Shown here: one piece after another, positions 33,145 through 34,690 of the stretch
How positions within the stretch are numbered: the stretch's first letter is position 1
How the letters are laid out: each line of letters starts with the position of its first letter
From: a virus
Virus record (IMG/VR): IMGVR_UViG_3300029451_000002
Coordinates: 1 to 64,000 of that record
Length of the DNA: 64,000 bases
Strand: one strand, 5' to 3'
The notes under the pieces: model-generated
What the model was told of the DNA's origin: nothing
Databases searched by the model: none
Seen by the model: the letters and a program-made list of their open reading frames with translations, nothing else
Program-made: the position numbers and the translations under genes

Positions 33145-34080
33145 TTGATTATGTCTAAGCAGACTGGTTTTTCATTCGCAAGTTCAAAGAAGTCATTAAT
33201 TGAGACTATTGACGAAATTAAGAAGTCAAAGATGCCTCGCAACGAAAAGATTGTTGCATTGAAGGCTTGCGGTCTTCGTGAGAAAGAAATCTCCGATATG
33301 TTGAAGGTCTATGTACCTAGCGGTTCTACTTCAACGAGATTTGTTTATACATTCGGTGTTGAGATAGAATGTGTTCATGCCGAGCGCAATGCCTTGATAG
33401 AGGCAGGTCGTCAGAATGGTGTTGATATTCATTCTGAGGGCTATAACCACACCGACAACAAGAGTTATTTCAAGATTGTTAGTGATGCTTCAGTTCGTGG
33501 TGATATTGACCATAACGAGGTTGTAAGTCCGGTATTGAATGGCAATACAAATGGTATGGCAACCTTAAAGAAGGCTATTAAGTCTTTGGATGCCGTAGGT
33601 GCAAGAGTAAATTCTACTTGTGGTCTTCACGTTCATATTGGTGCAGCAAAGTTGACAGGTGAGCAGTATGTTAACGTCTTCAAGAATTATCAGAAGCTTG
33701 AAAGATTGATTGATAGCTTCATGGCTCCTTCCCGAAGAGGTAATTGCCGTTGGGCAGCCAGCTTGCTTGACAAAGATTTCTCTAATTGTCACAGCAATCA
33801 AGATATTAGATTCGATGTCTTTCATGGAGATAGATATTATAAGGTCAATGCTGAGAGCTATACACGTCACAGGACAATCGAGTTTCGCCAGCATCAAGGT
33901 TCTACCAATTTCAAGAAGATAGAAATGTGGGTTAAGTTCTGCGCAAAGCTTGTCGGTTGGTCTCGCAATAATGTCTTTGCTAGTGAGGTTATGAATATCG
34001 AAGATATACCTTTCTTGAATAAAGAAGAGAAGGCTTTCTTCCAGAGTCGTAAGGATGCATTTGCAACCAATAACGATTAA
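33145..34080 (+). CDS. Amidoligase (GCS2/glutamine-synthetase-like COOH-NH2 ligase, Amidoligase_2 family)
   Basis: FGVEIECVHAE (the FGxExE motif), CGLHVHIG, and Arg/Glu-rich core spacing typical of the family. Confidence 0.6.
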   Translation: MIMSKQTGFSFASSKKSLIETIDEIKKSKMPRNEKIVALKACGLREKEISDMLKVYVPSGSTSTRFVYTFGVEIECVHAERNALIEAGRQNGVDIHSEGYNHTDNKSYFKIVSDASVRGDIDHNEVVSPVLNGNTNGMATLKKAIKSLDAVGARVNSTCGLHVHIGAAKLTGEQYVNVFKNYQKLERLIDSFMAPSRRGNCRWAASLLDKDFSNCHSNQDIRFDVFHGDRYYKVNAESYTRHRTIEFRQHQGSTNFKKIEMWVKFCAKLVGWSRNNVFASEVMNIEDIPFLNKEEKAFFQSRKDAFATNND

Positions 34081-34156
34081 TTAATGTAGTCCTAGGGTAA
34101 AAGCACTAGGACACAAAGAAATCAAAGTGTTATTAAGAAAAAGAAAGGGTAAAGAT

Positions 34157-34690
34157 ATGTGTGTTATTATTGTATGTCCGAAAGGTGTTGCTTTGCCATC
34201 CGTAGATGAACTAAAGGCTGCGTATATGAGAAATCCCGATGGTTGCGGTTTTGTGAGCGAGTCTGACCATTACAAGAGTTTGCATTTCTCTACATTTATC
34301 CGTAGATTGATGAAGCGAGATATAAATGAGAATGTAATCATACATTTTAGATTTGCTACTCATGGCTCTGTCTGTGTCAAGAACTGCCATCCATTCTACA
34401 AGGCAGGTTATTGGTTCGCACATAATGGAGTGCTCCCGATTTGCACTGAGCATGATAAAACAGATAGTCAAATTTGCTTTGAACGTTTCATTTATCCTAC
34501 TATCAAGAAATATGGTTGGGGTTCTGATGAACATATGAAAGAAATGAACAAATGGACAGCTCATGGTTCTAAGTTTGCAATGTTGCATAATGGTGAGATT
34601 GTGAAGTCCGGTAAATTCATAGAGCGTGATGGACGGTTCTATTCTAATTTGAATCATTTGGGTTATATGAGAAATGTAATAAACTTTTAG
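34157..34690 (+). CDS. Class-II (Ntn) glutamine amidotransferase-like protein
   Basis: MCVIIVCPKG gives Cys2 as the Ntn nucleophile; HFRFATHGS, CHPF, HNGVL motifs; the track ORF begins at an upstream alternative start (34127). Confidence 0.6.
   Translation: MCVIIVCPKGVALPSVDELKAAYMRNPDGCGFVSESDHYKSLHFSTFIRRLMKRDINENVIIHFRFATHGSVCVKNCHPFYKAGYWFAHNGVLPICTEHDKTDSQICFERFIYPTIKKYGWGSDEHMKEMNKWTAHGSKFAMLHNGEIVKSGKFIERDGRFYSNLNHLGYMRNVINF

Follow-up and report, generated by a model that had tools for sequence, protein, structure and literature searches.

Amidoligase_2 systems are among the most widespread sets of phage enzymes that lack a known substrate. Phage amidoligase systems were reportedly noted in 2009 by Iyer, Abhiman, Burroughs and Aravind, and the Pfam description of the family (PF12224) places Amidoligase_2 genes on phage genomes beside either a GAT-II-like thiol hydrolase or an AIG2/GGCT cyclotransferase. 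A literature search for functional studies of Amidoligase_2 or of the phage amidoligase system found none, in agreement with the original prediction that the pair described here was known from comparative genomics and had no demonstrated substrate. Gut, soil and marine phages carry such systems, with at least four bacterial phyla represented, and archaeal viruses possibly do so too, a haloarchaeal-virus preprint listing a stand-alone GlmS glutaminase domain, a GGCT and a carboxylate-amine/thiol ligase.

Here we analyse a two-gene cassette in a 64,000-nucleotide stretch of viral DNA (the window; IMG/VR record IMGVR_UViG_3300029451_000002, positions 1 to 64,000). With an Amidoligase_2 gene and a conserved partner neighbourhood on a phage genome, the pair is a member of the already known phage amidoligase system, and, as a predicted ATP-dependent amide-bond ligase plus a small predicted cysteine hydrolase, it is a minimal form of that system. 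It shares with the LUZ24-like, phiEco32-like and Zobellviridae examples the same ligase family, above the Pfam threshold, and the same association with a class-II GATase-like or AIG2/GGCT protein. It differs from them in having two genes only (COOH-NH2 ligase, ATP-grasp enzyme, GGCT and Peptidase_C26 were all absent from the window genes scanned), in a shorter GATase (177 aa, against 295-486 aa in Arthrobacter phages, O4 and UFV-P2), in an extra N-terminal three-helix ligase domain, and in its place next to the head genes of a Bacteroidota gut phage, where the others lie in early or replication regions. The phage that bears the cassette is very common in the human gut, and a public assembly collection has 771 indexed blocks with its exact GATase sequence. 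Neither protein matched a PADLOC defence-system model at E <= 0.1. Two genes under one promoter, an abundant phage and strong constraint make this cassette a good entry point for biochemistry.

The PuuA/PuuD and GlnA2-4-type pathways resemble the cassette in pairing a GS-fold ligase, which forms a γ-glutamyl amine, with a γ-glutamyl hydrolase that later frees glutamate, and a Peptidase_C26 (PuuD-family) protein occurs in the amidoligase cluster of Pseudomonas phage O4. Unlike PuuD, however, the hydrolase in the window is a class-II Ntn protein and not a class I/C26 enzyme, the oxidase and dehydrogenase steps are absent, and no evidence here points to a polyamine as the amine. Compared with EgtA/EgtC of mycobacterial ergothioneine biosynthesis, the cassette comes without EgtB, EgtD or EgtE partners or intermediate-modifying enzymes, and its ligase belongs to Amidoligase_2, not to GCS2 (identity about 16%). 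In PafA/Dop both enzymes have a GS-like fold, whereas the putative eraser in the window is an Ntn hydrolase and no small Pup-like protein ending in Gln or Glu is conserved beside the pair; neighbour clustering found no small ORF common to the lineages that could be a Pup-like tag encoded with the ligase. MurT has a Mur-ligase fold and GatD is a class-I GATase, the asparagine synthetase AsnB is a fusion that includes a PP-loop synthase domain, and the cyclotransferase substitution described below is without parallel in either. To the known phage system the present analysis adds a predicted GS/γ-glutamylcysteine-ligase/Pup-ligase fold for the amidoligase model, the homology of the small GATase, over its full length, to the N-terminal domain of a large family of GATase::γ-glutamylamine-cyclotransferase fusions, and the alternation of three unrelated γ-glutamyl-amide-cleaving folds as amidoligase partner across phages.

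Gene models and transcription signals

Both open reading frames were found in the ORF listing of the window (Table 1). The GATase gene stands where it had originally been placed, whereas for the amidoligase the ATG at 33151 is preferred over the alternative TTG start at 33145 by metagenome gene callers and homologue alignments. The longest ORF of the GATase begins at a GTG at 34127 and the called gene at the ATG (MCVIIV...); an MC start is found in 29 of 30 GATase homologues (alignment A1), the remaining one carrying an upstream extension.

Table 1. Coordinates of the cassette, its transcription signals and other features of the window
Feature	Position	Strand	Remarks
ThyX	24781-25734		gene call
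5-tRNA cluster	31974-32409		upstream of the pair
Small upstream ORF	32582-32860		ends ...DDLRR; confined to the lineage of the window phage
Terminator-like hairpin and T-run	32895..32922	+	ends upstream unit (tRNA cluster and small ORF); 12-pair stem, 5 GC pairs, then TTTTTAT
Putative promoter, copy of repeated Bacteroidota-type promoter (D1)	about 32969..33051	+	-33-like TTGC ~33021; -7 box 33044-33051
Leader hairpin GGTG-AGAGCGA-CACC (family D8)	33100..33114	+	GGTGAGAGCGACACC, variant of GGTGAGACACACC
Amidoligase	33151..34080	+	309 aa
7-bp hairpin GTCCTAG-N10-CTAGGAC	34089..34112	+	in 76-nt intergenic spacer; read from sequence
Class-II (Ntn) GATase-like protein, stand-alone	34157..34690	+	177 aa; Cys2 is the predicted nucleophile
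Terminator-like hairpin and T-run	34722..34755	+	ends two-gene unit; 15-pair stem, then TTTTTGTT
Phage_cap_E major capsid protein	36289-37377		
Mom-family gene	45243-45872		

The sequence supports the earlier proposal of a separate promoter for the pair: a putative phage-family promoter precedes the two genes and terminator-like hairpins stand on both sides, so that they make up a transcription unit of their own. The promoter repeat is present in eight copies in the phage; the cassette copy, at 32969-33049, is 74% identical to the reference and has the -7 box TATCTTCA, a variant of the consensus TATCTTTG. The leader hairpin is likewise a variant, as had been suggested, of a form that is present in four other leaders. 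In relatives the two genes are tightly spaced or overlap by 4 nt, an arrangement that would also fit a stoichiometric complex of ligase and GATase. The hairpin in the spacer could not be conserved in the phage group of ~52% identity, because the genes there lie ~28 nt apart or overlap by 4 nt.

The predicted surroundings were also recovered. The tRNA cluster lies 740 bp from the pair, and a scaffold-like gene, a small phrog_38330 protein and the major capsid gene follow downstream; capsid, tape-measure, terminase and portal genes mark the phage context. Profile searches assigned no family to the small upstream ORF. Among the other genes that had been named, ThyX was located, and dUTPase and MazG were not found among the ORFs scanned. 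The window encodes at least four DNA methyltransferases besides Mom. A radical-SAM/methyltransferase/acetyltransferase block in the relative L091 is an insertion that the window lacks.

The ligase and the small Ntn protein

Assignment of the first protein to Amidoligase_2 was confirmed by profile search (PF12224, E=4.6e-34, 118.8 bits against a cutoff of 22, profile positions 3-245 of 245), and it also matches phrog_2443 (E=6e-54). The expected motifs FGVEIE and CGLHVH are present at residues 68-73 and 157-162. Their residues G69, E71, E73, G158, H160 and H162 are invariant even between phage lineages at 27-37% identity, as are D112, E123, S194, R195, R228, E244, R246 and H248. From these motifs (ExE strand, HxH, ExR), and not from a computed superposition, we infer that the invariant residues are probably the counterparts of the GS metal and phosphate ligands. 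In the model, residues 16-51 form a three-helix, HTH-like domain and residues 67-309 a catalytic domain with the GS/γ-glutamylcysteine-ligase fold, whose matches include γ-glutamyl-amine synthetases (GmaS, 1-naphthylamine GS). Sequence identity to characterised ligases is 7-16%, and no solved structure was detectable by sequence for Amidoligase_2. The fold alone suggests glutamate as the acyl donor.

The second protein matches GATase_4 (PF13230, E=8e-7, 28.7 bits against a cutoff of 23) over residues 47-95 only, and has the Ntn αββα fold; the Cys2, HNGVL (residues 89-93) and CHPF (residues 77-80) on which its Ntn assignment had been based are all present. M1 and C2 do not vary among the 30 sequences of alignment A1, nor among 14 sequences that include GGACT fusions, and the same holds for Arg65, Asn90-Gly91 and Asp103. 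Aligned counterparts of the last-named residues are R73 and H97-N98-G99 in GlmS and the D-S-E motif in 1te5, from which R65 would hold the α-carboxylate, D103 the α-amino group and N90-G91 the oxyanion of a glutamyl substrate. The protein is predicted to be a γ-glutamyl-amide hydrolase or a glutaminase. Its fold and residues fit both an ammonia-feeding glutaminase and a γ-glutamyl-amide hydrolase, and do not separate the two roles; GlmS and PurF score as well as EgtC in the fold comparison. C-terminal extensions, which are variable, low-complexity, acidic or Cys-rich, are carried by 49 of the 150 closest GATase representatives; they include Tyr/Gly/Asp-rich linkers, acidic helices and zinc-ribbon-like ends, and no Pfam domain was found in them.

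Partner exchange and the proposed chemistry

Phage C75C1 encodes a fusion of a GGACT domain (E=2.7e-21) to a protein homologous to the window GATase over its full length, and the fusion gene shares an operon with an amidoligase. The GATase::GGACT fusion family comprises 242 clusters, with an identical and invariant catalytic set, and an amidoligase-family gene lies beside the fusion in at least five of the six contexts sampled. Across phages, the neighbour of the amidoligase is an Ntn-GATase in Bacteroidota and Arthrobacter phages, GGACT/GGCT in Bacillus, Geobacillus and many metagenomic lineages, and Peptidase_C26 in Pseudomonas phage O4. At least one of these three partner types was detected, with our own HMMs in ±5 kb flanks, in 25 of 37 lineages, a fraction biased by some lineages that were fetched via the partner gene; in the sample not selected on partner the count was 13 of 25. 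The ligase does not depend on the GATase, for one Bacteroidota clade, made up of Porphyromonas phages and a 46-locus cluster, carries the ligase alone. The GGACT-partnered amidoligases are 27-37% identical to the window amidoligase and may differ from it in substrate. A cyclotransferase cannot donate ammonia, yet it cleaves γ-glutamyl amines.

The best explanation, to which we give about an even chance of being right, is that the cassette makes and breaks γ-glutamyl amides and acts on the chemistry of the infected cell, not as a dedicated capsid modification system. As its fold and family suggest, the amidoligase would use ATP and Mg2+ to phosphorylate the γ-carboxylate of glutamate, either free L-Glu or, less likely, a glutamyl residue, and would join this carboxylate, once activated, to a primary amine of the infected cell to yield γ-Glu-NH-R. 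The N-terminal Cys of the Ntn protein would then, judging by the conserved residues, the fusions and the partner substitution, cleave a γ-glutamyl amide with a free α-amino and a free α-carboxyl group, namely glutamine itself or γ-Glu-NH-R. If so, the Ntn protein would erase or recycle products of the ligase's class, or supply glutamate, and would not primarily donate ammonia. The original description of it as a glutamine amidotransferase holds for the family, but probably not in the ammonia-donor sense, the evidence pointing to a γ-glutamyl-amide hydrolase. The amine is most plausibly a small molecule, for instance a polyamine, or the ε-amino group of lysine. The whole would be an autonomously transcribed accessory module. 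It may be objected that the reason for a maker and a breaker of one bond in one phage operon is not obvious.

We prefer γ-glutamyl make-and-break to glutamine-dependent amidation because of the fold, the GATase::GGACT fusions and the partner swapping. In amidation, an unlikely alternative, ammonia from the GATase would attack an acyl phosphate formed by the amidoligase to give a carboxamide, much as in asparagine synthetase or MurT/GatD; the substrate might be a peptidoglycan precursor, a nucleotide or a modified base. The residues of the Ntn protein are compatible with this, as set out above. However, in other lineages GGACT/GGCT takes the partner's place or Peptidase_C26 occurs in addition to it, neither of which supplies ammonia, GGACT is fused to the same Ntn domain throughout the 242 clusters, and the large Bacteroidota clade has the ligase alone. 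To our knowledge, characterised ammonia-channelling class-II GATase domains are all fused to their synthase, and the characterised stand-alone EgtC is a hydrolase, which also counts against amidation. The fusion, the GGCT substitution and the ligase-alone clade are indirect evidence that ammonia transfer from the GATase to the synthase site is not obligatory.

A more specific form of γ-glutamyl make-and-break, in our judgement distinctly unlikely as it stands, has the pair as writer and eraser of mono-γ-glutamylation on lysine ε-amines of host or phage proteins or on polyamine amino groups. The ligase would add single glutamates via the γ-carboxyl, and the Ntn hydrolase, or the GGACT domain in other phages, would remove them, in a PafA/Dop-like cycle built from different parts that might serve host takeover or counter-defence. 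The mammalian GGACT enzyme that has been characterised acts specifically on γ-glutamyl-ε-lysine. On this reading the variable hydrolase tails would serve to recruit targets.

It is improbable that the pair serves auxiliary nitrogen metabolism, in which a glutaminase and a GS-like or γ-glutamyl-amino-acid-forming ligase would retune the host glutamate/glutamine pool. Several genome papers do class the pair as auxiliary metabolic genes, and both folds are known from enzymes of central nitrogen metabolism. A glutaminase plus a GS-like enzyme would, however, be a futile cycle, the proteins are highly divergent from cellular enzymes (no NCBIfam match above cutoff), and the cyclotransferase substitution, together with the COOH-NH2 and ATP-grasp ligases of larger systems, suggests a specific product.

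Restriction to γ-glutamyl amides gives a short and concrete list of substrates and mass shifts. If the target were a host macromolecule or a defence-related amine, the cassette would represent a new class of phage host-manipulation enzyme; if it were ordinary metabolite turnover, the question would be closed.

Conservation and genomic context

The GATase gene lies directly downstream of the amidoligase gene in all 87 related Bacteroidota-phage loci. The dN/dS ratio is 0.11 for the amidoligase and 0.04 for the GATase, the genes are intact in 56/58 and 57/58 loci respectively, and the constraint on the cassette is stronger than that on the major capsid protein; the pair is under strong purifying selection. 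A survey of the gene neighbourhoods of homologues, which the original prediction had proposed, found the partner enzyme conserved and, with all neighbours clustered across lineages, no third gene conserved between lineages.

The pair had been expected to lie often next to structural genes, which the wider comparison does not bear out. In the LUZ24-like phage UFV-P2 the system lies within the early gene module, and early gene products of the phiEco32-like phage SU10 include related components (an ATP-grasp enzyme, a glutamine amidotransferase and a YtfP/GGCT-like protein). Replication regions hold it in the Zobellviridae phages O4 and Klyazma, in Arthrobacter phages and in Geobacillus phage GR1. 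Proximity to packaging or head genes is found only in some Bacteroidota phage lineages, and is lineage-specific: the pair is immediately upstream of scaffold-like and capsid genes in the window phage and L056, in the L065-L090 group it precedes terminase and portal genes, and the amidoligase is inside the head module in Porphyromonas phages.

These locations bear on the leading idea of the original prediction, that the pair tags or cross-links a virion protein, such as the scaffold, decoration or major capsid protein encoded just downstream. The head-gene contexts just listed speak for it, as does PafA, a fold relative that joins the γ-carboxylate of glutamate to protein lysines. We nevertheless regard virion tagging as very improbable, since the pair appears to have its own promoter and terminator, the system or related components are early in UFV-P2 and SU10 and in replication regions in Arthrobacter, Geobacillus and Zobellviridae phages, and neither a structural gene nor a small tag-like ORF varies in step with it.

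Modification of the cell envelope for superinfection exclusion, an idea attributed to Iyer et al. (2009) for phiEco32 and cited as a working hypothesis in several papers, is scarcely credible here. In its favour, when a Pseudomonas phage was subjected to directed evolution, missense changes arose in the amidoligase and GATase of both evolved lines, along with changes in four structural-protein genes. Peptidoglycan stem peptides, with a γ-glutamyl bond plus free amino and carboxyl groups, also count for it. However, GGACT and class-II Ntn enzymes require a free α-amino group on an L-γ-glutamyl donor, which peptidoglycan D-isoglutamate does not offer. Strictly lytic phages that express the system early would, moreover, gain little from exclusion by cell-wall remodelling.

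A role in nucleic-acid modification, with the ligase adding or amidating a group on a base, in hypermodified phage DNA or in tRNA, and its N-terminal three-helix domain binding nucleic acid, is quite improbable. Amidoligase and glutaminotransferase Pfam domains have been found in metagenomic thymidine-hypermodification clusters (Lee et al., 2021), Mom and the DNA methyltransferases are encoded in the window, and RtcB occurs in pair-bearing phages, with Tpt1 in addition in L008. The HTH-like N-terminal domain is found in both Bacteroidota and Actinobacteria examples, but all of its Pfam HTH matches are below threshold (HTH_23 0.0034, HTH_18 0.0019, Sigma70_r4_2 0.0066, HTH_SB 0.042). The DNA hypermodification role raised in the original prediction is weakened by the Pfam-labelled genes of the window, none of which is a 5-hmdU DNA kinase, aGPT-Pplase, dUMP hydroxymethylase or TET/JBP enzyme, while ThyX, for normal dTMP synthesis, is present. 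As regards tRNA, two separate phage groups carry such genes at most 1 kb from the pair, the second being a Bacteroidota group with tRNA-Val 250-800 bp downstream of the pair. No tRNA gene is nearby in L008, L056, L074 or any non-Bacteroidota example, and module boundaries attract both tRNA genes and accessory cassettes. With five other contexts that have no tRNA gene nearby, we rejected the link and treat the proximity as an unexplained coincidence.

We also considered a link with Mom, in which the pair would amidate an N6-carboxymethyl-adenine intermediate, and rejected it, as Mom and the amidoligase do not co-occur across the phage records listed, apart from one that is the window phage's own relative. 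Records with Mom number 105 in all, and those with the amidoligase 49.

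The ligase and GATase genes

Both open reading frames of the amidoligase/GATase pair are present in the window (Table). The ligase is best read as a 309-aa protein from ATG 33151, the model of the metagenome gene callers, which also fits homologue alignments; TTG 33145 is a mechanical ORF start only. The protein matches Pfam Amidoligase_2 along the entire profile (E=4.6e-34; 118.8 bits vs a cutoff of 22) and phrog_2443 'amidoligase enzyme' (E=6e-54), which upholds the family named in the original prediction. Its AlphaFold2 model is confident (pLDDT 87.5), and no solved structure was detectable by sequence. 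In alignments of lineages 27-37% identical, G69, E71, E73, D112, E123, H160, H162, S194-R195, R228, E244, R246 and H248 are invariant, and we infer that these residues handle the metal, ATP and acyl phosphate in this fold.

For the GATase, ATG 34157 is taken as the start codon rather than the in-frame upstream GTG 34127, because the called product has 177 aa and 29/30 homologues begin MC. It passes Pfam GATase_4 modestly (28.7 vs 23 bits, residues 47-95), and the full class-II catalytic set is invariant in the family alignment (C2, R65, N76, H78-P79, H89-N90-G91, D103-S104), as expected of the predicted class-II enzyme with Cys2. A profile search of the PDB aligned R65 and H89-N90-G91 to GlmS R73 and H97-N98-G99, and in 1te5, a YafJ-like protein, the D-S-E motif was the counterpart of D103-S104; the AlphaFold2 model is again confident (pLDDT 95.4). 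Variable C-terminal extensions of 80-250 aa occur in 49 of the 150 closest GATase representatives (e.g. P0402, P0409, P0413, P0438, P0490, P0501). No Pfam domain was found in these extensions, which consist of Tyr/Gly/Asp-rich linkers, acidic helices and at times CxxC zinc-ribbon-like ends, and which may be interchangeable targeting modules.

Terminator-like hairpins lie before and after the pair, which has, as predicted, its own promoter and a variant of the conserved leader hairpin. Many window operons are preceded by the same promoter family (-33 box TTTG/TTGC, -7 box TAnnTTTG), so the promoter says nothing on the timing of the pair. Counting possible copies, the family comprises 8-11 highly similar Bacteroidota-type promoters, and promoter and leader together may serve as a regulatory element across the whole phage.

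The window shares 96.5% identity with the human-faecal phage contig MT835576.1, which carries no annotation, and the assembly collection has the identical GATase protein in 771 indexed blocks, making this a very common gut phage. Promoter type and the source names of some homologues (Bacteroidaceae, Barnesiella) point to a Bacteroidales host. Across 58 closely related loci, dN/dS was 0.11 for the ligase, 0.04 for the GATase, 0.07 for the major capsid protein and 0.20 for the scaffold-like gene; the ligase was intact in 56 loci and the GATase in 57. Both are clearly functional genes.

Coordinates of features in the window and in two comparison loci (L008, L091)
Feature	Position (strand)	Remarks
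Ligase gene	33151-34080 (+)	
GATase gene	34157-34690 (+)	
Terminator-like hairpin, T-run	32895-32922	
Terminator-like hairpin, T-run	34722-34755	
Promoter of pair	32969-33049	Bacteroidota type, ...TTGCATGTTTC-N-TTTGTATCTTTGCA; one of eight repeat copies; -7 box TATCTTCA
Other promoter copies	406-486, 5586-5666, 17071-17151, 26216-26296, 31746-31826, 40411-40491, 48417-48497	
Further possible copies	9784, 15884, 34906	
Leader hairpin of pair	33100-33114	GGTGAGAGCGACACC, variant of GGTGAGACACACC in four other leaders
Conserved leaders with GGTGAGACACACC	507, 5687, 26316, 48518	After four promoters
tRNA cluster	31974-32409	Glu(UUC), Gln(UUG), Tyr(GUA), odd tRNA, Lys(UUU)
SPFH/Band-7 family lipoprotein	30560-31384 (+)	PF01145, phrog_200
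WYL_2 (Sm-like SH3) proteins	9911-10249 (+), 15109-15444 (-)	
ASCH-domain protein	12530-12934 (+)	
Rha/KilAC antirepressor-type protein	13077-13955 (-)	
C5 and N6/N4 DNA methyltransferases	41264-42370, 43599-45012, 46447-47220	
Mom-family protein	45243-45872 (+)	PF25680, E=2.9e-35; 33.5% identical to phage Mu Mom
RtcB RNA ligase	56171-57376 (+)	
L008: HNH endonuclease	7425-7964	
L008: Tpt1 (RNA 2'-phosphotransferase), metallophosphoesterase	11353-12997	3-4 kb from pair
L091: insertion	11134-20117	~9 kb, absent from window (~8274/8087)

Gene neighbourhood

The GATase lies directly downstream of the ligase in 87/87 Bacteroidota-type phage loci, at identities down to about 50%, and the genes overlap by 4 nt in some; in a single, distant phage the two are separated by an inserted HNH homing endonuclease. 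No further conserved neighbour was found among the Bacteroidota-type loci compared. In the window lineage, tRNAs precede the pair, and scaffold and capsid genes follow it. In another group of loci (L065-L090) the pair comes after a repressor-like gene and is followed by small ORFs, tRNA-Val, a phrog_625 protein, and PAPS-reductase-like, ParB-like, terminase and portal genes, and the distant pair-bearing phage L008 has DUF932, Tpt1 and metallophosphoesterase neighbours. Capsid-protein tagging had been proposed from head-gene adjacency, its sole basis, but this adjacency is lineage-specific: the genes of UFV-P2 lie in an early module, related components of SU10 are early gene products, and other phages carry the system in replication regions. 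Tagging is excluded as a general explanation. A link of the pair to tRNA is a rival reading, to which tRNA genes less than 1 kb away in two Bacteroidota phage groups would lend weight, but five other contexts have no nearby tRNA gene.

Amidoligase/GATase-type domains are present in thymidine-hypermodification clusters (Lee et al.), in keeping with the DNA hypermodification role also envisaged in the original prediction. However, the defining enzymes of such clusters were not found among the Pfam-labelled genes of the window, where ThyX is present, and thymidine hypermodification too is excluded as a general explanation. Cell-wall modification or exclusion has also been hypothesised, in a proposal that later papers attribute to Iyer (2009) and repeat.

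Partner alternation and proposed chemistry

The partner of the amidoligase differs between cultured phages. Arthrobacter phages carry a GATase_6-type protein and a GGACT-like ORF (the latter by local HMM), Geobacillus phage GR1 and Bacillus phage 035JT001 a GGACT/AIG2 cyclotransferase, and Pseudomonas phage O4 a Peptidase_C26 protein, class-II GATase, COOH-NH2 ligase and ATP-grasp enzyme. Klebsiella phage Klyazma has the annotated set of O4, its C26 homologue surfacing only in a phmmer search that used the O4 protein; LUZ24-like UFV-P2 encodes a COOH-NH2 ligase, HNH, GATase, ATP-grasp enzyme and AIG2/GGCT, and Porphyromonas phages and a 46-locus metagenomic clade have the ligase alone.

In phage C75C1, a full-length homologue of the window GATase is fused to a GGACT domain (E=2.7e-21), in an operon shared with an amidoligase. 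Such fusions form a family of 242 clusters. Their N-terminal domain has M1, C2, N26, G29, G31, H63, R65, A67, T68, G70, N76, H78, P79, F80, N90, G91 and D103 in common with the window GATase, and their GGACT domain starts exactly at its end point; some end in a zinc-ribbon-like motif. Of 6 contexts sampled, at least 5 have an amidoligase-family gene beside the fusion, in some cases one too divergent for Pfam but picked up by our HMM of the amidoligase family. At least one γ-glutamyl-amide-cleaving enzyme lies within 5 kb in 25/37 lineages (counted at 60% identity), and in 13/25 when the sample was seeded from a diverse alignment and not chosen via the partner gene, the latter figure being a lower bound given contig ends and HMM sensitivity.

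Characterised ligases with the fold of the amidoligase activate the γ-carboxylate of glutamate, and γ-glutamyl amides are cleaved by GGACT/GGCT, Peptidase_C26 and EgtC-type Ntn hydrolases alike. The ligase would join glutamate and an amine to a γ-glutamyl amide, and the partner would cleave γ-glutamyl amides with a free α-amino and α-carboxyl group. This is the simplest reading to cover all lineages, and we give it about an even chance; reversible modification, recycling, or separate targets within a single class of compounds are among the possible uses of both activities. Glutamine-dependent amidation seems rather unlikely; in the window lineage the conserved residues and the coupling of the genes agree with it equally well. 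A cyclotransferase is not known to donate ammonia.

The pair appears in many phage genome papers, and the Pfam entry for the family also describes it. No study characterising it biochemically or genetically was found in the literature, where the sole functional hint is the directed evolution of a Pseudomonas phage, with missense mutations in the amidoligase and adjacent GATase in both evolved lines. The original prediction is a correct identification of a further member of a known phage system. To this we add the ligase fold assignment, the tie of the small GATase to the GATase::GGACT family, counts for the alternation between three kinds of partner, and a measure of how strong selection is; we also exclude capsid tagging, Mom and thymidine hypermodification as explanations that hold in general.

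Accessory genes of the phage family

Glu, Gln, Lys and Tyr tRNAs are classical anticodon-nuclease targets. The fourth tRNA of the window cluster is polymorphic within the population. L031 has Thr(TGT) and L052 Thr(CGT), the window, L020 and L040 share an 8-nt anticodon loop read as 'tggt', and in L011 and L005 this tRNA was not detected. We take it to be either a tRNA-Thr in decay or a variant of quadruplet type. In two independent Bacteroidota phage groups, the window lineage and L065-L090, tRNA genes lie less than 1 kb from the pair, with tRNA-Val(GAC) about 250-800 bp downstream of the GATase in all 16 scanned L065-L090 loci; none were found near the pair in L008, L056, L074 or non-Bacteroidota phages. 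RtcB, Tpt1, the metallophosphoesterase and the tRNA set suggest tRNA repair or replacement as counter-defence.

The Mom gene lies amid DNA methyltransferases, and the phage probably carries N6-carbamoylmethyl-adenine-type DNA modification and several methylations as an anti-restriction block; among the phage-database records listed, Mom-family genes and amidoligases were found together only in this phage's own relative, and a link to the pair was rejected. HNH homing endonuclease genes were inserted directly next to or between amidoligase and partner genes independently in three unrelated phages (L008, UFV-P2 ORF24, Klyazma orf050). The SPFH/Band-7 gene, which lies shortly before the tRNA cluster, occurs in L004 but not in L005-L007 and so belongs to the variable accessory genes. 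WYL_2, ASCH and Rha/KilAC genes occupy the left part of the window. The insertion in the close relative L091 carries genes for two radical-SAM proteins, one methyltransferase and one acetyltransferase, and marks a variable cargo site of the phage family.
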